DNA from: Bacteroidales bacterium
GTDB taxonomy: Bacteria > Bacteroidota > Bacteroidia > Bacteroidales > UBA932
NCBI GenBank assembly: GCA_041670905.1
Contig: JBAXYG010000001.1
Location: forward strand, 1 to 40,577
DNA: 40,577 bases
Direction of reading: 5' to 3'
In this document: one piece after another, positions 7,127 through 40,577 of the stretch
Position numbering within the stretch: the first letter of the stretch is position 1
How the letters are laid out: each line of letters opens with the position of its first letter
Notes under the pieces: model-generated
What the model was told of the DNA's origin: nothing
What the model saw: the letters and a program-made list of their open reading frames with translations, nothing else
Database searches by the model: none
Translations under genes and position numbers: made by a program

Positions 7127-8428
7127 ATGAATAATATGGAAACCAAAAAATGGATTGTAATTACTTGTGTGATTGTAGGATTAGTGGCAATATGTACTTC
7201 ATTCTTTTTTATTCTTAAAAATGAAAAAAAGAATAATTCAGAAGAGGAAATAACCAAAACAATAGACGACAATGTATATGAATATGGTATCCCAATAAAT
7301 TTGTATGATGTAGATGAGGTAGTAGTTGAAAAAGGAGATTATTTTTCAACGATATTGAATAAAAGGGGAATTTCTCAAAAGATTATTTATGACATTTCTA
7401 ATAAATACAAACATATTTTTGACGTTAAAGACATTCAGATAGGAAAAACATATCACACTTTCTTTACAAAAGATACTACTGGTAATCCTAAACTTGCATA
7501 TTTAGTTTATGAAAAGGATAAAAAGTCAATGGTTGTATTTCAATTATTGGACACACTGAATGTTAATATTATTGAAAAAGAGGTAAAAACTACAACAAAA
7601 TTTGCTGAAATAACCATTAATAATTCTCTTTGGTATGATATTCAACAAGCCGGATTTTCTCCTCTTTTAGCATTAAAACTTAGTGATATATATGCATGGA
7701 CCATAGATTTCTTCGGATTGCAGAAAGGCGATTCTTTCTTTGCCCTGTATGATCAGGTTGAACTTGATGGAAAAATATTGGATATCAATGATGTACATTA
7801 CTCTGTATTTAAACATTTAGGAAAGAAATATGAATCTTTTTATTTTGATGAAGAGGGGGTATCCAATAAGTATTGGAACAGCAAGGGGGAAAGTTTAAAA
7901 AAGGCTTTTTTAAAGGCACCCTTGATATACTCCCGTGTAAGTTCAACTTTTTCATATGCAAGGAGACATCCAATAACACGTAAAGTTAGACCTCATACTG
8001 GGGTTGATTATGCGGCTCCAAGAGGGACTGAAGTACATAGCATAGGAGAAGGTATTGTTATCGAAAAAGGGTATAAAGGTGGAGGTGGTAATACTATTAA
8101 AATAAAACACAATTCTATTTATACAACAGCTTATCTCCATTTATCAAAATATGGGAAAGATATACGAGTTGGTAAAAGAGTTACTCAGGGCCAAATTATT
8201 GGGTATGTTGGGAGTACAGGCTCTTCAACCGGGCCTCATCTTGATTTTCGTGTATGGAAAAATGGAACCCCTATTAATCCTTTAAAGATGGAGTCTCCTG
8301 CTTCTGATCCTATAAAAAAGAAAGACAAAGAGTTATTTGAAGCTCAAAAACAAGCAGCTTTTAAAATAGTTTCAGAGTTCAGGCTTAAACAAACATACTT
8401 AAAAACAATTATTGAGCCGCTTGGATAA
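7127..8428 (+). CDS. membrane-anchored M23 family metallopeptidase (MepM/YebA-like murein endopeptidase)
   Basis: N-terminal TM helix and LytM/M23 motifs HTGVDYAAPRGT and GSTGSSTGPHLDFRV. The start could instead be M4 (7136). Confidence 0.9.
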   Translation: MNNMETKKWIVITCVIVGLVAICTSFFFILKNEKKNNSEEEITKTIDDNVYEYGIPINLYDVDEVVVEKGDYFSTILNKRGISQKIIYDISNKYKHIFDVKDIQIGKTYHTFFTKDTTGNPKLAYLVYEKDKKSMVVFQLLDTLNVNIIEKEVKTTTKFAEITINNSLWYDIQQAGFSPLLALKLSDIYAWTIDFFGLQKGDSFFALYDQVELDGKILDINDVHYSVFKHLGKKYESFYFDEEGVSNKYWNSKGESLKKAFLKAPLIYSRVSSTFSYARRHPITRKVRPHTGVDYAAPRGTEVHSIGEGIVIEKGYKGGGGNTIKIKHNSIYTTAYLHLSKYGKDIRVGKRVTQGQIIGYVGSTGSSTGPHLDFRVWKNGTPINPLKMESPASDPIKKKDKELFEAQKQAAFKIVSEFRLKQTYLKTIIEPLG

Positions 8429-19578: not shown

Positions 19579-21552
19579 ATGATATATGAAAATGATCCTT
19601 ATTTGGAACCATACAAGAGTGTGATTATTGAGAGAAATCAGCGTATTCTCCTTCAAAAACAAGAGATTGCTGGGTATGGAAAAACATTGAACAGTGCAAT
19701 TAATAATCATCTATATTATGTTTTGCATAAAAATGATAAAGTATGGGTTTTCAGAGAGTGGGCTCCAAATGCAACGAAAATTTTTCTTATAGGAGATTTT
19801 AATGAATGGGTAAAAAGTGAAAAATATTCTCTTAAACCAGTGGGTAGAGGTAACTGGGAGCTTATGCTGCCTATTGAGGAGGTCCATCACGAAGATAAAT
19901 ATAAATGGTATATAGAATGGCCTGGTGGGGGTGGAGAGAGAATCCCCGCTTATGCTACAAGATGTGTACAGGATGATGTAACAAAGATATTTTCTGCACA
20001 GGTATGGTTTCCTGAAAAGAAATATAAATGGAAACAAAAATTCAACACAAAAATAGAAAATCCAATTGTATATGAGGCACATATCGGGATGAGTTCGGAA
20101 AAAGAGAAGGTTGCCACTTTTGATGAATTCCGTATGGATGTTTTACCTCGAATTTATGATCTTGGATATAATACAATTCAGATAATGGCTTTGCAGGAGC
20201 ATCCTTATTATGGCTCATTCGGATATCAGGTTTCCAATTTTTTTGCCTTGAGCAGTAGATTTGGTACTCCGGATGAATTTAAAGCTTTGGTAGATGAGGC
20301 ACACCGACTAGGTATAGCAGTGATTATGGATATTGTTCATTCCCACTCGGTTAATAATGTTGCTGAGGGGTTAAGTATGTTTGATGGTACTGAAACCACA
20401 TATTTTCATTCCGGGGCAAGGGGACAACATCCTGCATGGACTTCAAGATGCTTTAATTATGGAAAAAGTGAAACATTGCACTTTCTTCTTTCAAATTGTA
20501 AGTACTGGTTAGAAGCGTATAATCTGGACGGATTCCGTTTTGACGGAGTGACTAGTATGCTCTATTATGATCATGGATTGGAAAGAAATTTTGTTGGATA
20601 TCAGAACTATTTTGATGCGGCTGAGGATGAAGATGCCATCACTTATCTTGGTCTTGTCAATATACTAATTAAGGAATTGAATCCTAATGCTTTTACAATT
20701 GCTGAGGATATGTCCGGAATGCCGGGCCTTGCGGCTCCTTTATCTGAGGGGGGAATTGGCTTTGACTTCAGAATGAGTATGGGAATATCTGATCATTGGA
20801 TAAAATGGATTAAGGAGTTGTCTGATTGGGATTGGAATATGGGAGAAATTTATTATCAACTGACAAATAAGAGAGAAGATGAAAAAACTATAAGTTATGC
20901 AGAATGCCATGATCAGGCCTTAGTTGGGGATAAGACGATAATATTTCGCCTGATGGATAAGGAGATGTACTTTAGTATGAATAAAAGTTCTGAAAATATT
21001 ATAGTTGACAGGGGGATGGCTCTTCATAAGATGATTAGACTTGTCACTATTGGAACGGCAGGGGATGGTTACCTTAATTTTATGGGGAACGAATTTGGTC
21101 ATCCTGAATGGATAGATTTTCCAAGAGAAGGTAATAATTGGTCATTTTTTTATGCCAGAAGACAATGGAGTTTGGCGGATTCCGATTTGCTGCGTTACAA
21201 ATTGTTACTCAATTTTGATAAAGCTATGATACACTTGATTGATAATACTAAAATATTGAAAAACAGACCATATTCTTTAAGACAAGATGAAATAAAAAAA
21301 ATTCTTATATTTATCAGAAGTGGTTTTTTATTCGTTTTTAATTTCAATCCTGATTCTTCTTTTGAGGGTTACGAATTTGAAGCGCCTGCAGGCAAATGGG
21401 AAGTGGTTCTTGATAGTGATGCTGTGAAATTTGGCGGGTTTGGACGCAATAGTGATGATATACCACACTTTACTCATTTGGAGGTTGACAAGAATATACT
21501 TTCTTTATATATTCCAAGTCGTACGGCATTGATTTTGCGACAAATCGTCTGA
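19579..21552 (+). CDS. glgB: 1,4-alpha-glucan branching enzyme, eukaryote-like GH13 type
   Basis: N-terminus DPYLEPY... followed by WAPNA...GDFNEW. GH13 regions GFRFDGVTSM, IAEDMSG and ECHDQA are present. Length is 657 aa. Confidence 0.92.
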   Translation: MIYENDPYLEPYKSVIIERNQRILLQKQEIAGYGKTLNSAINNHLYYVLHKNDKVWVFREWAPNATKIFLIGDFNEWVKSEKYSLKPVGRGNWELMLPIEEVHHEDKYKWYIEWPGGGGERIPAYATRCVQDDVTKIFSAQVWFPEKKYKWKQKFNTKIENPIVYEAHIGMSSEKEKVATFDEFRMDVLPRIYDLGYNTIQIMALQEHPYYGSFGYQVSNFFALSSRFGTPDEFKALVDEAHRLGIAVIMDIVHSHSVNNVAEGLSMFDGTETTYFHSGARGQHPAWTSRCFNYGKSETLHFLLSNCKYWLEAYNLDGFRFDGVTSMLYYDHGLERNFVGYQNYFDAAEDEDAITYLGLVNILIKELNPNAFTIAEDMSGMPGLAAPLSEGGIGFDFRMSMGISDHWIKWIKELSDWDWNMGEIYYQLTNKREDEKTISYAECHDQALVGDKTIIFRLMDKEMYFSMNKSSENIIVDRGMALHKMIRLVTIGTAGDGYLNFMGNEFGHPEWIDFPREGNNWSFFYARRQWSLADSDLLRYKLLLNFDKAMIHLIDNTKILKNRPYSLRQDEIKKILIFIRSGFLFVFNFNPDSSFEGYEFEAPAGKWEVVLDSDAVKFGGFGRNSDDIPHFTHLEVDKNILSLYIPSRTALILRQIV

Positions 21553-21632
21553 ATATTTCTAAAATACGGAAGAAATTTGTATTTTAAAATTCACAATTTA
21601 TAGTAACTTGCAAAGTTTAATAACGTGTGAGT

Positions 21633-23570
21633 ATGGCCTATTTGAAATTCAACAAAGCAGAGCTTGTAAATCTTGAATACTCGCTCAAGCGCGAAATGAT
21701 ATCAAGCAATAGTTCGGGTGCGTATGTAAATACAACTATTGTTTTTTGCAATACGAGAAAATATCACGGATTGCTGGTTGTTCCTATTGACAATTTTGAT
21801 GGAGAAAAGCATATTTTGCTTTCATCTCTGGATGAAACGTTGATTCAACATGGAAAAGGATTCAATCTTGGAATACATTGCTACGGTGAGGTCCATGAGC
21901 CTCGTGGTCATAAGTATATTATTGATTTTGAAATTGACCCCATACCTACAATTACATACAATGTAGGAGGAATGGTGTTACAAAAATCTTTTATTCTAGT
22001 AAAAAATGAAAATCAACTGCTGATTAAGTACACTCTTATAGATGCTCATTCAGATACTATACTTAGGCTTAAACCTTTTCTTGCATTCAGAAACATTCAC
22101 TCATTGACCCAAGAAAACAATATTGCCGACAAACACTATGATTTTGTAGAAAATGGTTGTAGATTCAAAATGTATGAAGGGTTTCCCGATCTTAATCTAC
22201 AGATTTCAAAAAAAAACGATTATGTTGCTAATCCTGATTGGTACAAAGGATTAGTTTACAGAGAGGAATTCAGGAGAGGATTTGATTGCACGGAGGATTT
22301 GTTTGTTCCCGGATTCTTTGAGATGCCGATTAAAAAAGGGGAAACGATAATTTTTTCCGCATCAACAAATGAAATAAAATCGGCATCATTAAAACAAAAA
22401 TTTGCTAAAGAGTTGCTTTCTGTCAGAAAGGTGGAAAATTATGAGGATTGCCTTCATAGCTCCGCAGATCAGCTTTTTGCTAAAAGAGGCAATAAAGTGG
22501 AAATTTGTAATGGATTTTCATGGATGGCAACAGGTGTTTTAAGAGATACTTGTATAGCTCTGCCGGGACTGACTCTATATAATAATTCAGACCTTACTTT
22601 ATTCAAAAAAGTGCTGGATGATTCCATTGCCAAACATAATTATTTTATTCTTAACGGCTCTCATCAGGTGGAAGCGCCATTGAGACTTACCGAGACGATT
22701 CAGCATATGGTTTCTTATACTTCTGATGCTGAAGGAGTTTGGGTGAAATATGGGAAATTACTTAAGGATATTATTAAAAGTTATATTAAAGGACGTCCAG
22801 AGGTACAACTTAGTGAAAATGGCTTACTTTGGGCTGAATTGCCTGGTGTGGCGCTTACCTGGATGAATGCGTATATTGAAGGAAAACCATTAAATGAACG
22901 AGCCGGATATCAGGTTGAAACTAACTGTTTCTGGTATAATTCAATCTGCTTTGCCCTCGATATGGAAAAATCATTTGGAGATGAGAAGAGGTTTATTGAT
23001 GAATGTGAACAGATAAAAGTTTTGATAGATAATAATTTTCAGGATATATTTTGGGTTGAAAAACGTCATCATCTGGCTGATTACGTTGGTTCTGGGGGAC
23101 AGAATATGGATACCAGGCCGAATCAGATATATTCATGTTCTTTACAATACAGTCCTGTTTCAGAAGAGATTCAAGCTGATGTCATACGTTCTTTAAGTAA
23201 GGAATTGCTTACAACAAAAGGATTAAGAACACTTTCTCCCAAAAGCCCTCTTTATAGGGGTACTTATGACGGGGATCAGAATCAAAGAGATATGTCTTAT
23301 CACAATGGGTGTGTGAGACCGTGGCTGCTTGGTCCTTATATTTCTGCCAATTTCAAACTTCATGGCGCTGCATTTATTACTACGGCTGAGAAATTGACCA
23401 ATGCATTTGAGGAAGATATGAATATTCACGGTTTGGGTGCACTCGCTGAGATTTATGATGGTGACCCACCACATTATCCCCATGGTGCAATTATTTCAGC
23501 TTTAAGTACTGCTGAATTATTGAGGGCAAAATATCTTATAACTAAGTATAAACAGGAGGAAGAGATATGA
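21633..23570 (+). CDS. glycogen debranching enzyme (GDE N-terminal domain + amylo-alpha-1,6-glucosidase domain)
   Basis: The domain order and length (~645 aa) are typical of the bacterial GDE family. I chose the ATG at 21633; the track ORF begins at a GTG two codons upstream (21627). Confidence 0.86.
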   Translation: MAYLKFNKAELVNLEYSLKREMISSNSSGAYVNTTIVFCNTRKYHGLLVVPIDNFDGEKHILLSSLDETLIQHGKGFNLGIHCYGEVHEPRGHKYIIDFEIDPIPTITYNVGGMVLQKSFILVKNENQLLIKYTLIDAHSDTILRLKPFLAFRNIHSLTQENNIADKHYDFVENGCRFKMYEGFPDLNLQISKKNDYVANPDWYKGLVYREEFRRGFDCTEDLFVPGFFEMPIKKGETIIFSASTNEIKSASLKQKFAKELLSVRKVENYEDCLHSSADQLFAKRGNKVEICNGFSWMATGVLRDTCIALPGLTLYNNSDLTLFKKVLDDSIAKHNYFILNGSHQVEAPLRLTETIQHMVSYTSDAEGVWVKYGKLLKDIIKSYIKGRPEVQLSENGLLWAELPGVALTWMNAYIEGKPLNERAGYQVETNCFWYNSICFALDMEKSFGDEKRFIDECEQIKVLIDNNFQDIFWVEKRHHLADYVGSGGQNMDTRPNQIYSCSLQYSPVSEEIQADVIRSLSKELLTTKGLRTLSPKSPLYRGTYDGDQNQRDMSYHNGCVRPWLLGPYISANFKLHGAAFITTAEKLTNAFEEDMNIHGLGALAEIYDGDPPHYPHGAIISALSTAELLRAKYLITKYKQEEEI

Positions 23571-26112: not shown

Positions 26113-29100
26113 ATGAAAATTGAAAAAACGATTATACCAGATTACCTATTTGAAGTAAGCTGGGAAGTATGTAATAAGATTGGTGGGATACATACGGTTA
26201 TTGCAACCAAATCACTTTTTCTTGGGAAGGAGTTTAAAAAGAACCACATACATATAGGTCCTGATGTCTGGATGGATACTAAACAAAATCCGGAATTCAC
26301 TGAAGATCCGTTACTTTTTCGTTCTTGGAAAGCTGCTGCTAATGAGGAAGGATTACGTGTTAGAATCGGGCGTTGGAATGTCGCCGGCAAACCGGTTGCT
26401 ATTTTAGTGGATTTTACACAATTTATATCAAAAAAAGATGAAATTCTTACCGGATTTTGGAAAAAATTTAAAGTTGATTCTCTAAGTGGTAATTGGGAAT
26501 ATATCGAGTCTGCACTTTTTGGTTATGCTGCTGGAAAAGTGATAGAAAGTTTTGTGAAATTTAATGTTCATCCTCATCATAAGGTTGTTGCACAGTTCCA
26601 CGAATGGATGACAGGAGCAGGTCTGCTTTATATAAAAGATACTAATCTGCCTATAGGAACAATTTTTACAACACATGCTACAATTGTTGGGCGATGTGTT
26701 GCCGGGAAAAACCTTCCTTTATATGATCAGATGTCACATATGAACGGAGATGAACTTGCAAGGGAATTCGGGGTAGTTGCCCGGCATTCTTTGGAGAAAG
26801 CTGCAGCGGTAAACTCCGATGTATTTACGACTGTAAGTGATATTACCGCTATTGAATGCGAACAGTTTTTAGAAAGAAAAGTGGATATTATAACACCGAA
26901 TGGTTTTGAGAACAGTTTTACTCCTAAAGAAGATGAGTTTAAATCATATCAAGATCGTGCCCGTAAGAAACTTCTAGAAGTTGCCTCTATAATGTCCGGT
27001 CAGCATTATGCTGATGACTCTATTCTGATATGCATAAGTGGCCGTTATGAGTATAGGAATAAAGGAATTGATGTTTTCATAGATGCTTTAAGCAGATTGA
27101 ATACAGGCAGTTATTCCGGGAAAAAAGTTCTTGCATTTATTATGGTTCCTTCCGGAAATAACGGACCTAACAAGGATCTTCTTGCAAAAATGCAGAATCC
27201 ATCGATAGATTATACTACAAATACTACTCATTATTTAATTGATGATTATGATGCAATCACAAATCGTCTGAAAGAACTGAATCTTAAAAACAGAGATTCA
27301 GATGAAGTGTCTGTATTTTTTGCTCCTACTTATTTGAATGGTAATGATGGAATATTCAATTTGAGTTATTACGATTTGCTGGTTGGTATGGATTTATCAA
27401 TATTTCCGTCATATTATGAACCATGGGGATATACACCACTTGAATCGCTCGCATTTATGGTCCCTACTGTTACTACAACTTTGGCCGGATTTGGTCTGTG
27501 GGTGCAGATGCATTACCCTAAAAATAAAAGCCATAGAGGCATTGAGATTATATTGAGAAATGATTCTAACTATGATGATGTTGTAAATGGGGTGGTTGAT
27601 CGTATAATTGAGATTGCCAAACTCACTCCAAAGGATATGTTAATTTATAAGCAGAACGCAAAAGATGTTTCGACCATTGCGCTTTGGGAAAATAACATCG
27701 TCTATTATATGAACGCCTATTCTATTGCCATAGAAAAAGTTATAGCTTCAAAAGGAGAGTATCCCGAGATTGTGGACAATAAGCCTCAATCTTACAAGAA
27801 GCTTTGTGCCAATAACCCATCATGGAATAGAGTTCTTATCAACAGACAGATACCTGACAGACTGAAGTCACTTGATACGATTTCTAAAAATATGTGGTGG
27901 TGTTGGAATGAGAATGCTATTGATTTGTTCCGAAATATTGATAAAGAATTGTGGGATTTAACAGATGGGAATCCGATTGCTGTTTTAGATATGATAAATC
28001 TTAAACGGTATAAGGAACTTGAAAAAGATGAAGTGTTTCTGCAAAATCTTGATTCCGTATATGATTCGTTCAACAAATATATGGATGAAAAAAAACATCT
28101 TAAAGGACCAAGCGTTGCTTATTTTTGTATGGAATATGGTTTGGATACCTCGCTTAAGATATATTCTGGTGGATTGGGAATTCTTGCCGGAGACTATTTG
28201 AAGGAATCGAGTGACATGATGGTAAAGATTACAGCAGTTGGACTTTTGTATAGATATGGATATTTTACACAACATTTGTCAGCCATGGGAGATCAAGTTT
28301 CTACATATGAACCTCAGGATTTTATGAAGATACCGGCTATCCCAGTCCGTGATGAAGATGACAATTGGATAACAATAAGTGTTGCCTTTCCCGGAAGAAA
28401 TATTTATGCCAGATTGTGGAGAGTTGATGTTGGGCGTACCGAATTATATCTTCTTGACACCGACTTTGAAGATAACCTGCCTAAAGATCGCCAGGTTACC
28501 CATTATTTGTATGGAGGAGACTGGGAAAACAGGTTAAAACAGGAATTATTGCTTGGCGTCGGTGGTATAAGAGCATTAAGAGCTTTGGGAATAGAAGCAG
28601 ATATATATCATTGCAATGAAGGTCATGCGGCATTTACTGGTGTAGAGAGATTAAATGAATATATTTCGCAAGATAACCTCTCATTTCCTGAAGCAATGGA
28701 GGTGGTAAGAGGTTCATCCCTGTTTACTACGCATACTCCTGTCCCTGCAGGTCATGATTCATTTTCGGAAGATTTATTGAGGGTATATATTGCCCATTAT
28801 CCAGCCCGGTTGAAAATTGATTGGCAAACTTTAATGGGTTTGGGTAAATTAGATGCCTGTAATAGTAATGAAAAGTTTTCAATGAGTATTCTTGCCGCCA
28901 ATCTTTCTCAGGAAATTAACGGAGTGAGTTGGATGCATGGAAAGGTAAGTCGACATATTCTTGCAAACATGTGGCCAGGATATCTTCCAGAGGAGTTGAA
29001 TGTAAGTTATGTGACGAATGGTGTTCATTATCCAACATGGACAGCTCCTGAATGGAAAAAAATACATGCTAAGGTTTTTGGTGAAAAATTCTTAACTCAT

Positions 29101-30351
29101 CATTATGACAAAGAGTGCTTTGAAGGGATTTATCAGATTTCTAATAAAGAGATTTGTGAAACAAGAATGACTTTACGCAAACGGCTGATAGATGAGGTAA
29201 AGGAGTGTATAAGTGATACTAATATAGCAAATCACTATTCACCGCGGCAAATAGTTAAAATAAAGAAAACGCTCAGAGATGATATCCTTACTATAGGATT
29301 TGCCCGTAGATTTGCTACATATAAGAGAGCGACTCTATTATTTAAGAGTCTTGACCGTTTAGATGAAATTGTAAATAATCCGGAACGTCCAGTTCAATTT
29401 TTGTTTGCAGGAAAAGCGCATCCGGCAGATAAAGCTGGTCAGGATTTGATTAAAAATATAATTGAGATTTCAAAAATGCCTCAATTTATTGGTAAAATTG
29501 TTTTTATCCCTAACTATGATATAAAAATAGCCAAGTTCCTTGTTCAGGGAGTTGATGTGTGGATGAATAATCCTACCAGGCCATTGGAGGCTTCAGGCAC
29601 CAGTGGAGAAAAGGCTGTCATGAATGGTGTAATGCACTTTTCAGTTCTTGACGGATGGTGGGTTGAAGGGTATAAAAAGGGAGCAGGATGGGCTTTGCCT
29701 ATGGAAAATACTTATGAAGATCAGAATTTTCAGGATGAACTTGATTCTGCTACTATATATAATATATTAGAGAATGAAATCGCCCCTGTTTTCTATAATA
29801 AAGGTGCGGAAGAACTATCATCAGAGTGGATTCAGATAATAAAGAATACGGTTGCGCAAGTTGCATGTAATTTTACCACCAATAGAATGCTTAATGATTA
29901 TTTCAATAAATATTATTTACCTCTCTATAAACGTCAGAAATTTTTGCTGGATAATGATTTTCGCCAGGCTCGTGAAATTGCTTTCTGGAAGAAGAAACTT
30001 CGCAGGGAGTGGGAGAATATAAGTGTAGTTTCTTTCACAAAACCAGATAATGCAAAAGAATCACTTGTTTTCGGTAAAGAATACAAGTCAGAATTGGTTG
30101 TTTCATTAGGGGATATTGATCCTGAAGACATTGGCGTTGAACTTGTACTTGCTGAACAAAATGCTAAAGGAGAATACAAGATAAAAGAAACATATGAATT
30201 TAAAGTTGTTGATAATAAAGACGGTTTAGTGACATATCAAGCCTATATTCTTCCTGACATTGCCGGAGCATATCATGTGGCTGGAAGAATGTATGCTAAA
30301 AATGAAAAGTTGCCTCATCGTCAAGATTTTGAATTAGTAAAATGGTTGTAG
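26113..30351 (+). CDS. fusion protein: GT3 glycogen synthase (aa 1 to ~555) + DUF3417/GT35 alpha-glucan phosphorylase (aa ~565 to 1412)
   Basis: The N-terminal half has FEVSWEVCNKIGGIHTV and SYYEPWGYTPLE (E-x7-E). The C-terminal half has NPSWNRVLINRQIPDRL...NMWWCWN (DUF3417), YSGGLGILAGDYLKESSD, TTHTPVPAGHD, and the PLP-lysine context EASGTSGEKAVMNG. It is a single uninterrupted 1412-codon frame. Confidence 0.9.
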   Translation: MKIEKTIIPDYLFEVSWEVCNKIGGIHTVIATKSLFLGKEFKKNHIHIGPDVWMDTKQNPEFTEDPLLFRSWKAAANEEGLRVRIGRWNVAGKPVAILVDFTQFISKKDEILTGFWKKFKVDSLSGNWEYIESALFGYAAGKVIESFVKFNVHPHHKVVAQFHEWMTGAGLLYIKDTNLPIGTIFTTHATIVGRCVAGKNLPLYDQMSHMNGDELAREFGVVARHSLEKAAAVNSDVFTTVSDITAIECEQFLERKVDIITPNGFENSFTPKEDEFKSYQDRARKKLLEVASIMSGQHYADDSILICISGRYEYRNKGIDVFIDALSRLNTGSYSGKKVLAFIMVPSGNNGPNKDLLAKMQNPSIDYTTNTTHYLIDDYDAITNRLKELNLKNRDSDEVSVFFAPTYLNGNDGIFNLSYYDLLVGMDLSIFPSYYEPWGYTPLESLAFMVPTVTTTLAGFGLWVQMHYPKNKSHRGIEIILRNDSNYDDVVNGVVDRIIEIAKLTPKDMLIYKQNAKDVSTIALWENNIVYYMNAYSIAIEKVIASKGEYPEIVDNKPQSYKKLCANNPSWNRVLINRQIPDRLKSLDTISKNMWWCWNENAIDLFRNIDKELWDLTDGNPIAVLDMINLKRYKELEKDEVFLQNLDSVYDSFNKYMDEKKHLKGPSVAYFCMEYGLDTSLKIYSGGLGILAGDYLKESSDMMVKITAVGLLYRYGYFTQHLSAMGDQVSTYEPQDFMKIPAIPVRDEDDNWITISVAFPGRNIYARLWRVDVGRTELYLLDTDFEDNLPKDRQVTHYLYGGDWENRLKQELLLGVGGIRALRALGIEADIYHCNEGHAAFTGVERLNEYISQDNLSFPEAMEVVRGSSLFTTHTPVPAGHDSFSEDLLRVYIAHYPARLKIDWQTLMGLGKLDACNSNEKFSMSILAANLSQEINGVSWMHGKVSRHILANMWPGYLPEELNVSYVTNGVHYPTWTAPEWKKIHAKVFGEKFLTHHYDKECFEGIYQISNKEICETRMTLRKRLIDEVKECISDTNIANHYSPRQIVKIKKTLRDDILTIGFARRFATYKRATLLFKSLDRLDEIVNNPERPVQFLFAGKAHPADKAGQDLIKNIIEISKMPQFIGKIVFIPNYDIKIAKFLVQGVDVWMNNPTRPLEASGTSGEKAVMNGVMHFSVLDGWWVEGYKKGAGWALPMENTYEDQNFQDELDSATIYNILENEIAPVFYNKGAEELSSEWIQIIKNTVAQVACNFTTNRMLNDYFNKYYLPLYKRQKFLLDNDFRQAREIAFWKKKLRREWENISVVSFTKPDNAKESLVFGKEYKSELVVSLGDIDPEDIGVELVLAEQNAKGEYKIKETYEFKVVDNKDGLVTYQAYILPDIAGAYHVAGRMYAKNEKLPHRQDFELVKWL

Positions 30352-32237: not shown

Positions 32238-32639
32238 ATGTCATCAATATTTACAAAAATAGTAAATGGTGAGATTCCTTCATATAAAGTGGCGGAAGAT
32301 GACCGTTTTTATGCTTTTTTGGATATCAGTCCATTGACAGTAGGTCATACTTTGGTTATCCCAAAGGTTGAAGTAGATTATATTTTCGATCTTGACGATA
32401 AAACTTATAATGATTTGTTTGTTTTTGCTAAAAAGGTAGCAAAAGCTATTAAATTGTCTGTGCCTTGTAAAAGAGTAGGGGTTGCAGTGTTAGGAATGGA
32501 AGTGCCTCATGCTCATATACATCTTATTCCTTTGCAGACAGAAGGGGATATGGATTTCAGAAAAGAAAAGAAAAAACTTTCCGCAGTGGAATTTAATGAG
32601 ATTGCAAGTAAAATTGCAACAGCATTTGAAAAGTTATAA
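32238..32639 (+). CDS. HIT family (histidine triad) nucleotide hydrolase
   Basis: Histidine triad HAHIHLIP. Length is 133 aa. Confidence 0.92.
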   Translation: MSSIFTKIVNGEIPSYKVAEDDRFYAFLDISPLTVGHTLVIPKVEVDYIFDLDDKTYNDLFVFAKKVAKAIKLSVPCKRVGVAVLGMEVPHAHIHLIPLQTEGDMDFRKEKKKLSAVEFNEIASKIATAFEKL

Positions 32640-32643
32640 ACAT

Positions 32644-33780
32644 ATGAAAAAAATCCTATTATTAGCGTTTGTTGTGTTATTTGTGTCTTCATGTAATAAC
32701 ACACAGAATGCAAAGATAAATGCGACTATAACTGATGCAAAAGATGTAAAAGTTGTACTCCAAAAACTGAACTATAGTAAGATGAGTGTAATAGATACTA
32801 TCACTACTGATTCTGCCGGAAAATTCAAATATAAAGTGAAGCTTCCTAATTCTTCACCTAATTTTTATTATCTCTATATCAATGACACCAAAGTGGCCTC
32901 AATGGTACTATTGCCAAAAGACAACATAACCATTGTTGCTGATGGCAAGGGTTCTTATACTGTTGACGGCTCTCTTGAATCTTCAAATTTGAAGAAAATT
33001 GATAGTACTTTTTATGCTGCAGTTGCTAAAATGAACAGCTTAACAAAAGAGGCACAAACAATAAATACTGACAATAAAGATCAAGTTAAGAGTATAAACA
33101 GACAACGCGGTCAGGTGTATGTTCAGCAAAAAAGAGCAGCCATAAGACATATCATGGACAATCCTAATTCTATAACTTCTGCTGTTGTTTTATTTCAGAA
33201 ATTTGGAGAAAATCTCCCTGTTTTCGGAGAGATGTCAGACGTGATATTATTTAAAAGGGTATATGATTCATTACAGGTGGTCTATCCGGAATCAGAATTT
33301 ATGATAGCTCTTATGGATGAAATAAATGCAAGGGAAAAATTATTTGAATTTGAAAATAAGTTATCAAGCGCATCTGAGATAAGTTTTCCTGATTTGGTTT
33401 TACCTGATATGAATGGTAATCAAAGTATCCTGTCCAGTCTTACTGGAAAGGTTATAATGCTCTCTTTTTGGAGCGTAGCTCAGACTGAGCATAAAATGTT
33501 TAACAATGAATTAAAAGAGCTTTATTCAGTATATAGAGATAAGGGTTTTGAAATATACCAAGTAGCTCTTGATGTAGATAAACCAGTATGGGCATCGGCA
33601 GTGCAGAACCTTCCATGGATAAATGTAAATGATGGACTAGGAACAGCTTCTCCTGCAATAACTGCTTATAACATTAAAAAAATTCCTTCAAATTTCATTA
33701 TAAACAGAAAGGGTGATATTATAGCCCGTGATATTTTTGAAATAAGTAAGATGGAAGAGATAGTAAAGAAAGCTTTATAA
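32644..33780 (+). CDS. DUF4369 + TlpA/thioredoxin-fold lipoprotein lacking the CXXC active site
   Basis: Lipoprotein signal MKKILLLAFVVLFVSSC (Met46 of the track ORF). The C-terminal thioredoxin-fold pattern is FPDLVLPDMNGNQSILSSLTGKVIMLSFW...GFEIYQVALD...IPSNFIINRKGDII. The expected WCxxC is replaced by WSVAQTEHK. Confidence 0.8.
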   Translation: MKKILLLAFVVLFVSSCNNTQNAKINATITDAKDVKVVLQKLNYSKMSVIDTITTDSAGKFKYKVKLPNSSPNFYYLYINDTKVASMVLLPKDNITIVADGKGSYTVDGSLESSNLKKIDSTFYAAVAKMNSLTKEAQTINTDNKDQVKSINRQRGQVYVQQKRAAIRHIMDNPNSITSAVVLFQKFGENLPVFGEMSDVILFKRVYDSLQVVYPESEFMIALMDEINAREKLFEFENKLSSASEISFPDLVLPDMNGNQSILSSLTGKVIMLSFWSVAQTEHKMFNNELKELYSVYRDKGFEIYQVALDVDKPVWASAVQNLPWINVNDGLGTASPAITAYNIKKIPSNFIINRKGDIIARDIFEISKMEEIVKKAL

Positions 33781-34455
33781 TATAGATTTTTTGCTTATTC
33801 CGATAACAAATTCCTTAAGATATAAGGGTTCAAAGTATGCAACATCTTTGAACTCTTTTTTTTGTAAAGATTTTAAAGCTGGTGTAAGCATATAAGTGGC
33901 ATTTGGACAGCAACTTTCAAAGTATGCATTTGGATGATTGATTATAGACCTAAACTTATTTACTCCATCTCCGATGAAAAGAACCGTGTTGTTTTCCAAC
34001 TCATTTTTAAAACTGTTTTCGTCAAGTATTAGTGCCTCAGTTTTACTCTCCTGGATTCCTTCGGAATTAAAAATAGCAGTATATACCTCCATTCTGCGTG
34101 CATCAATCATAGGGACTATTTTTTTTGCTTTTTTAATTCCCTGCATAGCCAGTATTTCTAATGTGCCTACTGCCAATAACGGCTTATTTGCACCAAAACA
34201 CAATCCTTTTACTGTAGAAATTCCTACACGGAGTCCCGTATATGAACCAGGCCCTTCACTAACTGCTATTGCTGTGCAATTGGAAATACTTATACCGGCC
34301 TGTTCAATAACTTCCTTGATAAAAGGGGCAAGGAGTGAGGCATGTTGTTTAGGTGCGGATATTGTCCGTTCTGCGATTATTTTGTCTCCCGAAGATAATG
34401 CTACTGAGCAAGACTCAGTACTGGTTTCAATTAACAAAAGTATTGGGTCTGTCAT
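33775..34455 (-). CDS. tsaB: tRNA t6A37 threonylcarbamoyltransferase complex subunit TsaB
   Basis: N-terminus ILLIETSTESCSVALS and GPGSYTGLRVG. Length is 226 aa. Its ATG overlaps the stop of the upstream adaptor gene (ATGA). Confidence 0.9.
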   Translation of the reverse strand: MTDPILLLIETSTESCSVALSSGDKIIAERTISAPKQHASLLAPFIKEVIEQAGISISNCTAIAVSEGPGSYTGLRVGISTVKGLCFGANKPLLAVGTLEILAMQGIKKAKKIVPMIDARRMEVYTAIFNSEGIQESKTEALILDENSFKNELENNTVLFIGDGVNKFRSIINHPNAYFESCCPNATYMLTPALKSLQKKEFKDVAYFEPLYLKEFVIGISKKSIL

Positions 34456-35714
34456 TTCTTTGGTTCTTCTTTTTCTTCTTTTGCTTTTTCTGTCTTATCT
34501 TTTCCTTTGGCATCCTTTTCAAGTATTTTAACTTTTGACCCTTCTTTTAGAGTCTTACTAATGGCTATATAAGGTGAAACCACAACCTTATCATCTTTAT
34601 TAAGTCCAGATGTTACTTCAATAGAAGTAAGGTCTTGAATTCCTGTTGTGATAATCTTTGCAGATACCGTATTATCATCATTCAAAACCCATACTTGTTC
34701 TTTCAAGTCTCTAGATATGATACATTGTAGCGGGATGGTAATAATCCCTTCCTTTTTATTAGTCAAGATTGATACAGAAGCTGACATACCTGGCCGAAAA
34801 GGAATTATATTTTGACTTAACAGATCATTGTAGGATTCGGGAAGAATTGATACTTTTACTTCAAAATTCGTTACCTGCTCTACAGAAGAACCGATATTTT
34901 TAGCGGAATTTGCAATCTGTGTTACGATACCTTTGAATTTACGCCCGGGATAAGCATCAACTTCTATTTCGGCTGTATCGCATTGTTTGAGTCTTATAAT
35001 ATCATTTTCATTAACATCAACCAAAACCTCCATATTATCTAAATTAGCAATACGGAGCATCTCAGTACCAGCCATCTGGCTTGTCCCTACAACTCTTTCT
35101 CCACGTTCAATGCTCATTTTTGAAATGATACCGCTCATAGGTGCATATATTACGGTCTTTGTCAGGTTTTCGCGAGCTTCTTTTAAAGAAGCTTCACTGC
35201 TCTTAATTGTATATTCTGCAGCATTAAGTTGTTCTTTTGCTACCTCATAATTAGCCATTGCAGTTTCATATTCCGATTCAGAAATGGCTTTTTGCTCGTA
35301 TAAAGATTTATTCCTCTTGTAACTCAGTTCAATCTGGATCAACTGTGCTTTTTGTTGAAGAAATTGTGCTTTAGTTGCATTCAATGATGCTTCAGCTCTT
35401 TCAACGAGAGAAATATATACATCTTGTTTTATTTTAAGAATAAGATCCCCTTTATTTATCTCATTACCCTCTTCAAAGTTTAATTCAACAACTTCTCCGG
35501 ATACGTCTGGAGAAATTTTAACCTCTACTACCGGTTGAATTTTGCCGCTTGCCGGTATTGATTCAACTATATCTTTGGTAATTGGGGTTTCAACGGATAC
35601 TTCCGTTACATTTTTTCTTTTACCACTGAGTGCGGCAACTGCTATAACCAAAAGAATAACTGCCAATGCAATATACCAAGTCTTGATTTTTCTTTTTTTC
35701 TTTTTCTTTACCAT
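34452..35714 (-). CDS. periplasmic adaptor (membrane fusion protein, MacA/HlyD-type)
   Basis: N-terminal poly-Lys tail plus a TM anchor, a lipoyl-like motif (GDLILKI / IYAPMSGIIS) flanking a long alpha-hairpin, beta-barrel regions, and a K/E-rich C-terminal tail. It lies 11 nt downstream of the TolC gene. Confidence 0.9.
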   Translation of the reverse strand: MVKKKKKRKIKTWYIALAVILLVIAVAALSGKRKNVTEVSVETPITKDIVESIPASGKIQPVVEVKISPDVSGEVVELNFEEGNEINKGDLILKIKQDVYISLVERAEASLNATKAQFLQQKAQLIQIELSYKRNKSLYEQKAISESEYETAMANYEVAKEQLNAAEYTIKSSEASLKEARENLTKTVIYAPMSGIISKMSIERGERVVGTSQMAGTEMLRIANLDNMEVLVDVNENDIIRLKQCDTAEIEVDAYPGRKFKGIVTQIANSAKNIGSSVEQVTNFEVKVSILPESYNDLLSQNIIPFRPGMSASVSILTNKKEGIITIPLQCIISRDLKEQVWVLNDDNTVSAKIITTGIQDLTSIEVTSGLNKDDKVVVSPYIAISKTLKEGSKVKILEKDAKGKDKTEKAKEEKEEPKK

Positions 35715-35725
35715 AGTAAGTTTAT

Positions 35726-37048
35726 TTAGAGTATGATAGGAATCCCTTTATAATAATCAATTATCTTTAACTGGAATATGTATTGAAATTTTGCCTGATA
35801 ATATTCCGATTCAGCTTTTATCATATTTGTTTTTGAAATAATGTAGTCGGTACCGTTGATTGCACCGCTTTCAAATTTCTGTTCGGCCATACGGAATGAT
35901 TCTTTCATTGCACGTACATTCTGTTCGGAAGCGAGATATTTCTCATAACAATTACGTGCTTCAGATACAGCAGATTGAATTTCTTTATATATATCCTGAT
36001 GTTTTGTTTTTAAATCTATTTCAGAATTTTTCACAGAAAGTCTGGCATTCTTAACTTTAGTATTTGCCTGAAATCCGTTAAAAATAGGTATGCTTACTCC
36101 TATGCCAACGGAAGGATTACGGTTGTCATTGAATTGTTGCTTGAAAGCTCCCTCTGCGGCATCACTATAATATGTTCCATATCCTGCTGATATGGAAATG
36201 GAAGGATATAGAGCACCTTTTGCCATTGATAATTGGATTTTGCTGTTATCAAGTGCATATTGTGTACTTCTGACCTGTGGTAATTTAAGGGCAACATCAT
36301 AAATGTTTTCTAATGATTCTCCCTGGAATTTTGAAACAATCATTTCCAAGTCCGGAGTTACGATATCGAATTTTTCTGCCGGAGGTAAATCGAGCATTTG
36401 AACCAATGTCAATGTGTTTGTTTCAACCTGGCCGTTAGCATTGACAACTTGTACTCTTTCGGAAGCTACTTGCGCATCAATTTCCAGAAGGGAACTGTAT
36501 GGCTGGCTACCTGCTTCAACTAATTTTGCCGTTCTCTCTCTTTGCTTTTCAATGCTGTTAAAACTAACTAAAGTGTTTTGTTGAATTTGTTTTGAAAGGA
36601 GTAACTGTAAATATGCTTTTGCAATATTAAGGGAAATGTCGTTTCTAAGTTTTTCAATATTCAGGTTGGCAATATTAAGTTGTACTTTATTGCTTTTAAT
36701 TGTATTATGTTTTGAAAAGCCGTTGAATACGGGTAAAGATGCACTTAGGGATGCACTTGTGGCTTGTGTTAACTTATTTTCAATTATGATTAGTTCCTGC
36801 ATATCAACGGAACGTCCCCAATTGAAATTATGCCCGATGGAACCGCTTACACTTGGGAAATAACTTAGTTGGGACTGTTTAAGGGTGTTTTTACTCTGCT
36901 CTACTGCTATTTCCTGCTGTTTTATCTGCAGATTGTTTTCCCATGCGTATTTTATGCATTCTTCAAGGGTCCACAATTTTTGTCCGTAAACTGTAAACGA
37001 CAGAAAAATCATCGAAGCAAGTAATATGTATCGTAAATATTTATTCAT
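35726..37048 (-). CDS. TolC-family outer-membrane efflux protein
   Basis: Signal peptide, then LTLEECIKYAWENNLQIK-type TolC N-terminus. It shows two-fold internal repeat organisation. Length is 440 aa. Confidence 0.9.
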   Translation of the reverse strand: MNKYLRYILLASMIFLSFTVYGQKLWTLEECIKYAWENNLQIKQQEIAVEQSKNTLKQSQLSYFPSVSGSIGHNFNWGRSVDMQELIIIENKLTQATSASLSASLPVFNGFSKHNTIKSNKVQLNIANLNIEKLRNDISLNIAKAYLQLLLSKQIQQNTLVSFNSIEKQRERTAKLVEAGSQPYSSLLEIDAQVASERVQVVNANGQVETNTLTLVQMLDLPPAEKFDIVTPDLEMIVSKFQGESLENIYDVALKLPQVRSTQYALDNSKIQLSMAKGALYPSISISAGYGTYYSDAAEGAFKQQFNDNRNPSVGIGVSIPIFNGFQANTKVKNARLSVKNSEIDLKTKHQDIYKEIQSAVSEARNCYEKYLASEQNVRAMKESFRMAEQKFESGAINGTDYIISKTNMIKAESEYYQAKFQYIFQLKIIDYYKGIPIIL

Positions 37049-37077: not shown

Positions 37078-37085
37078 CAAAGGTA
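37078..37085 (-). promoter_or_regulatory. -7 promoter box (TACCTTTG) for the TolC-adaptor-tsaB unit
   Basis: Exact TAnnTTTG match on the minus strand, 29 nt upstream of the TolC ATG and immediately downstream of the hairpin terminator. Confidence 0.4.
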
Positions 37086-37096
37086 TATTATTATTT

Positions 37097-37130
37097 TAAA
37101 AGAGGGTGCCTATTTTTATAGGACACCCTC
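37097..37130 (-). terminator. rho-independent terminator after the peptide genes
   Basis: GAGGGTGCCTAT-tttt-ATAGGaCACCCTC forms a 12 bp stem with one bulge. On the minus strand it is followed by TTTTAAAATAAT. It starts 5 nt after the stop of the 37136-37333 ORF. Confidence 0.55.
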
Positions 37131-37135
37131 AATTA

Positions 37136-37333
37136 TTATGCCCTTTTACCTATTTGAATCACATATTTACCAAATCTGATTGAAAATAGATAAATGTATC
37201 TGCATGCTGTGCCCAATACATACCCTACAAGATATAAAGCTTCTTGCGCTCCTTTGTCAACACCACCAACAACACTTAAGGATTCCATTTCATTTATTAA
37301 AATTAATCCTGTGTATTTATAATCATTTTCCAT
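37136..37333 (-). CDS. double-glycine-leader peptide precursor B (24-aa leader + 41-aa cationic hydrophobic core)
   Basis: The sequence is MENDYKYTGLILINEMESLSVVGG | VDKGAQEALYLVGYVLGTACRYIYLFSIRFGKYVIQIGKRA. The leader has E at -8 and hydrophobic residues at -4 and -12 relative to GG. It is on the same strand as a C39 ABC exporter and just downstream of it, and it is followed by a terminator. Confidence 0.65.
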   Translation of the reverse strand: MENDYKYTGLILINEMESLSVVGGVDKGAQEALYLVGYVLGTACRYIYLFSIRFGKYVIQIGKRA

Positions 37334-37350
37334 ATCAACAATTTTTTAAA

Positions 37351-37548
37351 TCAATTAATAACGGGTGTTCCCCACCCTTTTTTTATTCCCCTTAGTAAAT
37401 GGGGAATATAATCACCGAAAAAATCCAATACAGTCTTAATTTTTTCGATGCAATTTAGTACATCAACAAGAGACGTTCCTCCTCTTGTTTGAAGTTCGGA
37501 AGAATTTAATCCATCCAGCCCCGATTCTCTCATTCTTTTTTCTTCCAT
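37351..37548 (-). CDS. double-glycine-leader peptide precursor A (24-aa leader + 41-aa amphipathic core)
   Basis: The sequence is MEEKRMRESGLDGLNSSELQTRGG | TSLVDVLNCIEKIKTVLDFFGDYIPHLLRGIKKGWGTPVIN. The LNSSEL...GG pattern resembles the LSxxELxxIxGG leader consensus but is one residue shorter. It lies 17 nt after the PCAT stop and 17 nt before precursor B. Confidence 0.6.
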   Translation of the reverse strand: MEEKRMRESGLDGLNSSELQTRGGTSLVDVLNCIEKIKTVLDFFGDYIPHLLRGIKKGWGTPVIN

Positions 37549-39688: not shown

Positions 39689-39928
39689 TTAACTGTTATT
39701 TAAAAGGGAGCATTTTCTCACCCACATGGTTGTCTCTCCAATTTGACCTTCTACCTTACACTCCTGCCCCCCGATAAAATATAGTGCTGAAAAGAGACAC
39801 AATGCAAGAGTCAATAGTAATACGGTAATATATAATACGATTGTTGATGTGTTATTTGAAGGAAATAATCCTTCCACTGTGTTCTCTAATTCAGCGGTTG
39901 AAAATATGTTTATGTTCTCCTTTGCCAT
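39689..39928 (-). CDS. 79-aa single-pass membrane protein, first gene of the PCAT operon (immunity/accessory protein, MFP N-terminal stub, or leader-bearing pseudo-substrate)
   Basis: The sequence is MAKENINIFSTAELENTVEG-LFPSNNTSTIVLYITVLLLTLALCLFSALYFIGG-QECKVEGQIGETTMWVRKCSLLNNS. It ends 11 nt before the PCAT ATG. I do not recognise a family. Confidence 0.5.
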   Translation of the reverse strand: MAKENINIFSTAELENTVEGLFPSNNTSTIVLYITVLLLTLALCLFSALYFIGGQECKVEGQIGETTMWVRKCSLLNNS

Positions 39929-40040: not shown

Positions 40041-40526
40041 TTAGAAAAGATTCTTTAAATATGGAAAGAAATTGTTTGCTAAATTCAATAATGGTGTATA
40101 AAAATTAGATTCAGCAATTTTGTCAGCTGGAAGAAATTCAACCAGTTGATTTATAGAATTAAGTAGAAATACGACTACAGCTAAAATGATTGATATAATA
40201 ACAATAGACAGGATTATACCAAGAAGTTTATTTAACCACCCAAGCAGAGTTATTTTTATTATCTTTTCAATCAAATTACCAAGCAGGTTGAGTAATAATG
40301 CTACTCCGAAAAATATAACTATGAAAGAGACGATTTTTACCCAAAATTGAGTGAGTTCGACATACTTTAATATCCAGCTAGAAACAATATCCGCACATCT
40401 GATTGATAGCCAAATACCCAAAATAAGCGTAGCAAGAGAGATAAGCTGTTTTATAAGGCCGTTTTTTATTCCAAAATAAATGGCAGGAAGGAAGCAAAGT
40501 ACGATGATGATGTCAATAATTCCCAT
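40041..40526 (-). CDS. cvpA: CvpA family membrane protein (colicin V production protein homologue)
   Basis: The start MGIIDIIIVLCFLPAIYFGIKNGLIKQLISL... and four TM helices fit the typical CvpA N-terminus and size. I chose the start at M10 of the track ORF; the track start is 40553. Confidence 0.85.
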   Translation of the reverse strand: MGIIDIIIVLCFLPAIYFGIKNGLIKQLISLATLILGIWLSIRCADIVSSWILKYVELTQFWVKIVSFIVIFFGVALLLNLLGNLIEKIIKITLLGWLNKLLGIILSIVIISIILAVVVFLLNSINQLVEFLPADKIAESNFYTPLLNLANNFFPYLKNLF

Positions 40527-40577
40527 AAAACATTGCTTTATTGTGTTATTCAAAATTAGTGAATTATAGTATCTTTG

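Follow-up and report, generated by a model that had tools for sequence, protein, structure and literature searches.

Layout of the A and B genes

The window analyzed in this work is a 40,577 nucleotide stretch from the genome of a Bacteroidales bacterium (GTDB lineage UBA932; GenBank assembly GCA_041670905.1, contig JBAXYG010000001.1, positions 1 to 40,577), and the system in question is a pair of small adjacent genes on its minus strand, here named A and B, which encode peptide precursors with double-glycine (GG) leaders. The pair follows the gene of a peptidase-containing ATP-binding cassette transporter (PCAT), and an original prediction, made by a model from the DNA of this one genome, had proposed that the two products form a two-component toxin, possibly joined by a disulfide bond. 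The two genes are laid out as follows.

37351 to 37548, minus strand: precursor A, 65 residues (open reading frame and translation), leader MEEKRMRESGLDGLNSSELQTRGG followed by core TSLVDVLNCIEKIKTVLDFFGDYIPHLLRGIKKGWGTPVIN
37477 to 37548, minus strand: A leader, codons 1 to 24, GG at 23 and 24
37354 to 37476, minus strand: A core, 41 residues
37136 to 37333, minus strand: precursor B, 65 residues (open reading frame and translation), leader MENDYKYTGLILINEMESLSVVGG followed by core VDKGAQEALYLVGYVLGTACRYIYLFSIRFGKYVIQIGKRA
37262 to 37333, minus strand: B leader, codons 1 to 24, GG at 23 and 24
37139 to 37261, minus strand: B core, 41 residues

The start codon of A lies 17 nt past the stop codon of the PCAT gene and that of B 17 nt past A. 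The counts given in the original prediction, i.e., two precursors of 65 residues with GG at positions 23 and 24 and cores of 41 residues, were all correct, and the cores it had called dissimilar gave no BLASTP alignment at E ≤ 100, which means that any similarity between them is undetectable. Its description of core B as hydrophobic, with a net charge of +4 and five tyrosines, and of core A as amphipathic and near neutral (net charge +1) was confirmed, as was the presence in each core of exactly one cysteine (C9 in A, C20 in B) and one GxxxG motif (G30-G34 in A, G13-G17 in B). No further A-like, B-like or GG-leader open reading frame was found in the window. Structure prediction with AlphaFold2 placed a helix over residues 27 to 58 of A when run on the single sequence (mean predicted local distance difference test score, pLDDT, 68), and for B, when run on nine sequences, a leader helix at residues 15 to 20 and a core helix at 27 to 64 (mean pLDDT 66, rising to 80 to 87 over residues 31 to 50).

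Some gene callers choose the alternative start Met6 for A, which gives a product of 60 residues; the 65 residue form is supported because the MEE at codons 1 to 3 is invariant in the nine lineages described below while Met6 varies. A and B are real genes under purifying selection and not chance open reading frames, as follows from their low ratios of nonsynonymous to synonymous substitution rates (dN/dS) and from the presence of syntenic orthologues in all of the related lineages found. When compared to a 95.5% identical strain (L001), A differs by six synonymous changes and one nonsynonymous change and B by three synonymous and three conservative nonsynonymous changes, and among lineages dN/dS ranged from 0.04 to 0.40 for A and from 0.13 to 0.44 for B (seven pairwise comparisons per gene).

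Co-occurrence and sequence conservation of the pair

Word-indexed protein searches, run with A, B, and an alignment of the two fused, matched only the window's own 90% clusters, which are annotated as "hypothetical protein, Bacteroidales bacterium", and a metagenome scan with the fused alignment produced no contig beyond one already known. A genome scan based on the PCAT identified one orthologous locus, L004 from Bacteroidales UBA1769 (PCAT 61% identical), in which A' (59 residues) and B' (55 residues) are arranged in the same order as in the window, together with about 50 loci whose PCATs are about 40% identical. When B was used as query in a full HMMER scan of 1.84 billion representative proteins, seven further family members were identified at 41 to 50% identity, and the contig of each of these seven also carries an A-family gene 9 to 19 nt upstream of B.

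The nine uncultured lineages (the window, L004, L061, L062, L064, L067, L070, L073, and L076) share the gene order CvpA, a protein of about 50 residues with a transmembrane (TM) helix, PCAT, A, B, a TolC-like protein, an RND-type adaptor, and TsaB, the adaptor gene coming next after the TolC-like one wherever the contig extends that far. Co-occurrence in homologous loci had been put forward in the original prediction as a check on the pairing, and A and B were indeed paired in every homologous locus found, always in the same order and 9 to 19 nt apart; none of the nine lineages has A alone, B alone, or a duplicate copy of either. The tandem, co-transcribed pair that had been proposed from one genome is a fixed tandem, transcribed with the C39-peptidase exporter. 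Identity to the window is 38 to 59% for A and 39 to 62% for B, as compared to 40 to 62% for CvpA, 49 to 67% for the PCAT and mostly 56 to 68% for TsaB; the divergence of A and B matches that of these flanking genes.

In the nine-lineage alignment of the A family the invariant positions are M1, E2, E3, G10, S16, S17, L19, G23, G24, F43, Y47, P49, G54, and G58. The leader reads MEE...G....SSEL..GG, and the core consists of a variable amphipathic N-terminal half followed by F-x-x-x-Y-[IVL]-P-x-[LF]-x-x-G-[FIL]-x-x-G-[FWYV], where G54 and G58 correspond to the core motif G30xxxG34 in the tail Y-I-P-x-L-x-x-G-[FIL]-x-x-G-[FWY]. The corresponding B family alignment has E17 (position -8), G23, G24, D26, A29, Y34, G37, Y38, and G41 invariant, and its core opens with the block [VIA]D[KR]xA[QK]xx[LI]YxxGYxxG, which includes G13xxxG17. 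GxxxG is invariant in both families across the nine lineages, most other core positions being variable. It is on this family-wide invariance that the weight of the motif rests, since shuffled sequences contain GxxxG in 25% of cases for A and 39% for B and its occurrence in a single genome is unremarkable.

In A the leader has 24 residues except in one lineage, where it has 26, and in B it has 23 to 25; the core varies from 35 to 43 residues in A and from 30 to 41 in B. Of the identical 24+41 architecture claimed for the two precursors, the leader of about 24 residues is conserved, but the equality of the two 41 residue cores is special to the window lineage and a coincidence. Charge is kept in kind, A being near neutral (-1 to +1) and amphipathic and B cationic (+2 to +4) and hydrophobic in all lineages. 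A correlation of A and B in core length or charge was considered as evidence of covariation and set aside, nine phylogenetically non-independent points being too few. As a separate observation, the leader registers of the two families differ though one C39 domain presumably cuts both: in B the canonical E and V/I occupy -8 and -4, and A has an invariant S-S-E-L at -9 to -6, hence E at -7 and L at -6, with a Cys at -4 in L004 and L064.

These data bear on the alternative that A and B are independent class II bacteriocin or microcin-like peptides which share one exporter and each have their own target. The cores are unrelated, multi-peptide PCAT loci are common (several of the related loci have at least three GG peptides), and tight linkage alone would account for co-inheritance, all of which fits such an arrangement. 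It is opposed by the strict 1:1 pairing, order and spacing in nine of nine lineages, with no loss, gain or swap at 38 to 62% identity, and by the conserved complementarity of charge and hydrophobicity and the one invariant GxxxG of each family, and we regard it as unlikely.

Conservation of the cysteines

The presence of one cysteine per core had led to the idea of an intermolecular disulfide, i.e., a heterodimer linked between A Cys9 and B Cys20 and formed after export. The idea fails on conservation. The cysteine of core A occurs in the window lineage only (one of nine), the aligned residues elsewhere including F, A, I, V, L, and K, and that of B is present in four lineages and absent from five; three lineages (L004, L064, and L061) have the cysteine in B and none in core A. 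There is no thiol oxidoreductase in the operon, and Bacteroides have been reported to be without general disulfide-forming machinery, hence the presence of a dedicated oxidoreductase in bacteroidetocin loci (Coyne et al., PMC6671954). The possibility that a thioredoxin-like lipoprotein encoded at 32509 to 33780 on the plus strand catalyzes disulfide formation was rejected, as its gene lies on the opposite strand and beyond tsaB; L004 has in its position a 449 residue multi-pass membrane protein without annotation. Because the cysteines are not conserved, the disulfide heterodimer is rejected as the mechanism of the family, and even as a lineage-specific feature of the window organism, in which each core has its one cysteine, an A-B disulfide appears very improbable.

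The presumed exporter and its neighboring genes

The genes surrounding the pair encode a presumed export apparatus and were assigned as follows.

40041 to 40553, minus strand: CvpA (Pfam/NCBIfam)
39689 to 39928, minus strand: small membrane protein, 79 codon open reading frame with one TM helix
37566 to 39677, minus strand: PCAT of 703 residues with C39 peptidase, six TM helices and ATPase (Pfam Peptidase_C39, ABC_membrane and ABC_tran; NCBIfam bacteriocin_ABC, 396 bits)
35726 to 37048, minus strand: TolC-like outer-membrane efflux protein, 440 residues (Pfam OEP, E = 1.6e-51)
34452 to 35714, minus strand: periplasmic adaptor of the RND/MacA type, 420 residues with an N-terminal TM anchor (NCBIfam TIGR01730 RND_mfp, 194.6 bits against a cut-off of 94.9)
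33775 to 34455, minus strand: TsaB

The PCAT could be aligned end to end with the PCAT1 structure (4RY2, E = 4e-113) and keeps the peptidase motifs of PCAT1, namely Q-x5-C (RQHDKSDC versus RQYDLTDC), HFVV, and DP (MDPADG versus ADPGKG). Because the residues aligned to these motifs are kept, the PCAT looks like an active leader peptidase rather than one with the inactive C39-like domain of HlyB-type transporters, and it is presumed to be both the leader protease and the inner-membrane exporter of A and B. The TolC-like protein is the presumed outer-membrane exit duct. The adaptor scores 145 bits with the MacA model, which is under the cut-off of that model, and no RND or MacB pump gene adjoins it; standing in for a full-length HlyD, it presumably connects the PCAT with the TolC-like channel, a partnership read solely from the invariant synteny of the genes.

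The small membrane protein has orthologues of 50 to 52 residues in all nine lineages, which end right after the TM helix, and the window copy is 27 codons longer. Its conserved part comprises the first 52 or so codons and consists of a cytoplasmic N-terminus with the motif [LI]-x-x-x-[ED]-[LI]-[ED]-x-T-[VIA] followed by the TM helix. At least 14 open reading frames of HlyD size, located directly upstream of related PCATs, have extreme N-termini that align in register with a profile of this mini-protein, each match on its own being marginal (E 0.03 to 3.4). A full-length HlyD-family adaptor (380 to 420 residues) is encoded before related PCATs, and it is in this position that the A/B lineages have the mini-protein of about 50 residues. 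This suggests that the mini-protein is a split or truncated HlyD adaptor kept under selection; its role could be that of a PCAT accessory, a piece of a split adaptor, or a candidate immunity protein.

The gene cvpA, named for a "colicin V production protein", has long been linked to colicin V production. It lies directly upstream of the export locus, which is itself of the colicin V type (PCAT, GG peptides, TolC-like channel), in the nine lineages, and elsewhere in Bacteroidota the loci with PCATs of about 40% identity do not have it as a neighbor. A general association of cvpA with PCATs was therefore rejected for the wider clade, the adjacency being limited to the A/B lineages, where it may be functional or may merely mark an insertion site.

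Hairpin and promoter-like box downstream of B

Two features were located between B and the TolC-like gene.

37098 to 37130, minus strand: GC-rich hairpin (37102 to 37130) followed by a U tract, starting 5 nt past the B stop codon (folding energy -22 kcal/mol, z = -2.98)
37078 to 37085, minus strand: promoter-like box TACCTTTG, read from the sequence, 29 nt upstream of the TolC-like start codon

The hairpin was found by folding, a terminator scan having missed it. A hairpin with a U tract is present at the same place in eight of the nine lineages (window/L001, L004, L061, L064, L067, L070, L073, and L076), the sequences being unrelated; in the remaining lineage, L062, there is no hairpin and the TolC-like gene starts 5 nt after B. 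The structure looks like an intrinsic terminator or attenuator which closes a transcription unit composed of the small membrane protein, the PCAT, A, and B. Such an arrangement would allow high expression of the peptides with lower expression of the exporter, and suggests a possible separate promoter for the channel genes. The box TACCTTTG fits the Bacteroidetes -7 promoter consensus, TAnnTTTG, and the same motif is carried by the equivalent spacers of L061 (TAACTTTG) and L067 (TACCTTTG), which makes it a possible promoter of the channel and adaptor genes. A sigma-70 promoter scan was no better than chance, with 26 sites against 24.7 expected from shuffled sequences.

The same features are relevant to whether the TolC-like and adaptor genes belong to the peptide system at all, or are unrelated neighbors that serve a pump encoded elsewhere, in which case the peptides would be periplasmic or would take another route through the outer membrane. 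The hairpin and the TAnnTTTG-like box separate B from the TolC-like gene, and the adaptor is of the RND/MacA type and not of the HlyD type usual for PCATs. Against this, the nine lineages all have the TolC-like and adaptor genes behind B, no RND/MacB pump adjoins them, the TolC-like gene of L062 starts immediately after B, and another adaptor is needed because the full-length HlyD is reduced to the mini-protein in the A/B lineages. An unrelated channel is on balance distinctly doubtful.

Genomic setting

The remainder of the window is ordinary core chromosome of uniform GC content (about 35%) with mraY, murE, a penicillin-binding protein gene, dnaX, and genes of glycogen metabolism. Among the latter is a 1412 residue open reading frame (26113 to 30351, plus strand) in which glycogen synthase, DUF3417 and alpha-glucan phosphorylase domains are joined, so that synthesis and breakdown enzymes form one polypeptide; gene calls in the syntenic loci L001 and L002 show this fusion as well, and a branching-enzyme-like gene (19579 to 21552) and a debranching enzyme gene (21627 to 23570) lie near it. 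A 695 residue protein with BACON domains and BspA-type leucine-rich repeats (8409 to 10496, minus strand) is a typical Bacteroidales surface protein and is unrelated to A and B.

The chromosomal setting raises the question of whether the pair is a weapon or a conserved physiological system, with A and B acting as peptides of the cell's own envelope or as signals that have been kept beside cvpA. The pair occupies the same chromosomal position in nine lineages, is as conserved as the neighboring housekeeping genes with dN/dS well below 1, has no evident immunity gene, and shows no signs of mobility, being in core chromosome of uniform GC content. The locus, however, contains neither a sensor kinase nor a response regulator nor any other receptor gene, the cationic or hydrophobic helical cores of 30 to 43 residues resemble pore-forming bacteriocins and not typical short pheromones, and the absence of an immunity gene weighs little since bacteroidetocin loci are likewise without one (PMC6671954). 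A physiological role is considered rather unlikely.

Peptide pairs at related PCAT loci

The loci with PCATs of about 40% identity (about 50 loci, L005 to L055) are mostly from Cyclobacteriaceae and other Bacteroidota. At least one GG-leader open reading frame was found in 43 of them, and in 20 of these 43 there is an adjacent GG pair, with distances from a 26 nt overlap to a 25 nt gap (e.g., L022 3933 to 4315, L055 9475 to 9832, and L015 10898 to 11274); several have three or more GG peptides. In these pairs the first peptide almost invariably combines the leader MEKFKELS..E...GG with a core tail [FIL]-x-[DEKG]-G-[FWY], while the second has a different leader, of several types, and often a G-Y-x-x-G block. 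At least six combinations of first and second peptide recur with the same partner in at least two genomes and across different genera. With the TIGR03949 model (class IIb, lactobin A/cerein 7B; cut-off 21.5) four first peptides were tested and two of them pass, the related-locus peptides scoring 22 to 26 bits, and most other peptides of these loci match GG-leader models below threshold. A GG-peptide pair module looks widespread and uncharacterized in Bacteroidota.

The related pairs resemble A and B in the PCAT, in the adjacency of the GG peptides, in the A-like tail G-[FIL]-x-x-G-[FWY] of the first peptide and in the B-like G-Y-x-x-G of the second. They differ in having leaders of 15 to 18 residues, a full-length HlyD before the PCAT, no TolC/adaptor pair and no adjoining cvpA. 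Comparison of the nine-lineage alignments by hhalign lent at most moderate support to a link, with a match between A cores and first-peptide cores (probability 67%, E = 5e-5) in the tail P-x-L-x-x-G-F-K-D-G and one between B cores and second-peptide cores (probability 19 to 27%, E about 1e-3) in the block I-G-Y-x-x-G; the crossed comparisons were not significant (E 0.24 and 0.6). An earlier hhalign run with three sequences per family was weak, and a hidden Markov model of first-peptide cores, which scored A at 3.9 bits, did not clearly distinguish A from its own shuffles, scores as good being reached by 7 of 1000 shuffles for A and 24 of 1000 for A'. A and B may have arisen as a divergent branch of this broader Bacteroidota pair module.

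Comparison with known bacteriocin systems

Class IIb bacteriocins are defined by adjacent genes in one operon, GG leaders of 15 to 30 residues, a dedicated ABC transporter, and GxxxG in all members, the motifs being GxxxG or AxxxA/SxxxS, and have an immunity gene in the operon with the two structural genes (PMC2850506). A and B are adjacent same-strand genes 17 nt apart with a hairpin only after B, and have 24 residue GG leaders, a dedicated PCAT and an invariant GxxxG. As in lactococcin G and plantaricins EF and JK (PMC2850506), there are two peptides from adjacent genes with GG leaders and a C39 transporter, the cores of 30 to 43 residues are predicted here to be helical, and both positive charge and hydrophobicity are greater in one of the two peptides. 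The A/B system is unlike these in that its producer is a Gram-negative Bacteroidales, which needs an adaptor and a TolC-like channel, in that no immunity gene lies beside the structural genes, and in its fixed core-genome locus. Neither peptide reaches the sequence-family cut-offs, there being no match of A or B to TIGR03949, to Pfam PF10439 Bacteriocin_IIc, or to the lactococcin G families. By analogy, the pair would work like a class IIb system but is not filed as a member of the class.

Class II microcins such as colicin V, exported by CvaAB-TolC, resemble A and B as small unmodified peptides with a GG leader, and the cutting of that leader by a PCAT and the route through PCAT, membrane fusion protein and TolC would presumably be shared as well (PMC12219008). 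In descriptions of these microcins the peptide is a single one, its leader has 15 to 19 residues, and a membrane immunity protein is encoded next to it (PMC12219008), whereas A and B are an obligate-looking pair with 24 residue leaders. A PCAT, an adaptor and a TolC-like protein, the three types of component in microcin export, are encoded in the A/B locus, but the adaptor, a presumed partner of the PCAT, is of the RND/MacA type and not of the CvaA/HlyD type and is accompanied by the mini HlyD-like protein. No small membrane immunity gene lies directly beside A or B, the 50 residue TM protein being separated from them by the PCAT gene.

Bacteroidetocins (proposed class IIf; PMC6671954, PMC8546649) are, like A and B, Bacteroidales GG-leader peptides of about 40 residues whose genes lie beside that of a PCAT and have no immunity gene with them. 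They are single peptides with leaders of 15 to 16 residues and four cysteines in intramolecular disulfides, and their locus encodes a thiol oxidoreductase and a 5-TM protein (PMC6671954). With 24 residue leaders, at most one cysteine per core, and an operon made up of the small TM protein, PCAT, A, and B, the pair is not a bacteroidetocin, being set apart by leader length, cysteine count and locus content as these have been described for bacteroidetocins.

A Gram-negative bacteriocin of two components is CdzC/CdzD of Caulobacter, in which leaders ending in G[G/A/S], type I secretion and glycine helix-packing motifs are also found (PMC5380434). CdzC/CdzD is a two-protein, contact-dependent bacteriocin of 60 to 151 residues with extended GxxxGxxxG small-hydrophobic zippers, surface aggregation and an immunity protein, CdzI (PMC5380434). 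A and B differ from it in composition and have a single GxxxG per core with intervening residues that include Y, K, and D, and no CdzI-like gene; lacking an extended glycine zipper, the pair is, on its sequence, not Cdz-like.

Interpretation

From real genes under purifying selection, their invariant pairing, order and spacing, their GG leaders, and the kept PCAT motifs, all of which were observed directly, we infer cleavage, an export route, joint action and antibacterial activity along the following lines. The C39 domain of the PCAT would cut both precursors after Gly24, and the two helical cores of about 41 residues would be exported in one step via the PCAT, the RND/MacA-type adaptor and the TolC-like channel. 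Outside the cell A and B would act jointly as a two-component, class IIb-like membrane-active agent, in which the cationic, hydrophobic B would enter the membrane and the near-neutral, amphipathic A would pack onto it through the one invariant GxxxG face of each, no disulfide bond being needed. A class IIb-like two-peptide agent of this kind, cut after Gly24, exported and free of a disulfide, is the best-supported reading of the locus, and we hold it with moderate confidence. The two-component toxin of the original prediction is thus retained in part: co-occurrence, the invariant GxxxG and complementary chemistry are in its favor, while the equal size of the cores is not conserved and an immunity gene is missing.

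Several points weigh against this reading. There is no open reading frame for an immunity protein between B and the TolC-like gene, where the terminator-like hairpin is found instead, and the sole small membrane protein in the unit is the HlyD-N-terminus-like protein of about 50 residues upstream of the PCAT. This carries little weight, as bacteroidetocin loci also lack such a gene (PMC6671954), and is not decisive. The fixed core-genome position and housekeeping-level conservation are unlike most bacteriocin loci, and neighboring genes are co-inherited anyway, so that co-occurrence is no proof of joint action. The GxxxG of A sits in a polar tail past a conserved proline (Y-I-P-x-L-x-x-G-F-K-D-G-F), which is not a typical membrane helix. 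Scans of A and B with Pfam (E ≤ 0.01) and NCBIfam (E ≤ 0.1) gave no match, the AlphaFold2 models are only moderately confident (mean pLDDT 66 to 68), and the homology to the related Bacteroidota pairs, which rests on short motifs, is suggestive only. An antibacterial role of A and B is as yet a prediction from sequence and locus.

Significance of the system

According to a 2023 survey of the order, bacteroidetocins, which are single peptides, are the only class II bacteriocins reported from Bacteroidales (PMC10352776). For Bacteroidota the number of predicted class II peptides runs into the thousands (PMC12648112), and it is in Gram-positive bacteria that two-peptide bacteriocins were defined (PMC2850506). 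Our literature search found no two-peptide system described for Bacteroidota. The A and B peptide families are new and unannotated, and both the core-genome fixity of the locus and the composition of its exporter, with a split or replaced adaptor, are unusual. It is tempting to see in the locus the first class IIb-type system of two peptides to be native to the Gram-negative Bacteroidales, or else a non-antagonistic paired-peptide system, which has long been kept as a core module, is tied to cvpA, and has had its exporter rebuilt, HlyD being cut down to a 50 residue cytoplasmic-plus-TM mini-protein and its periplasmic role being taken by a MacA/RND-type adaptor and a TolC-like channel. In this full form the proposal is tentative and rather unlikely. 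If it is true, the locus would be a natural handle on the roles of CvpA and of the HlyD N-terminus in the export of double-glycine peptides.

A pair which has been kept through about 40 to 60% divergence with one invariant GxxxG in each member makes a clean candidate for a two-peptide system in Gram-negative bacteria and one that can be tested, and both cores are short enough for synthesis. The mixture of PCAT, HlyD-N-terminus mini-protein, MacA-type adaptor and TolC-like channel beside cvpA could show how double-glycine peptides pass across two membranes. If A and B are not toxins, their housekeeping-like conservation would point to an unrecognized physiological role of exported peptide pairs.

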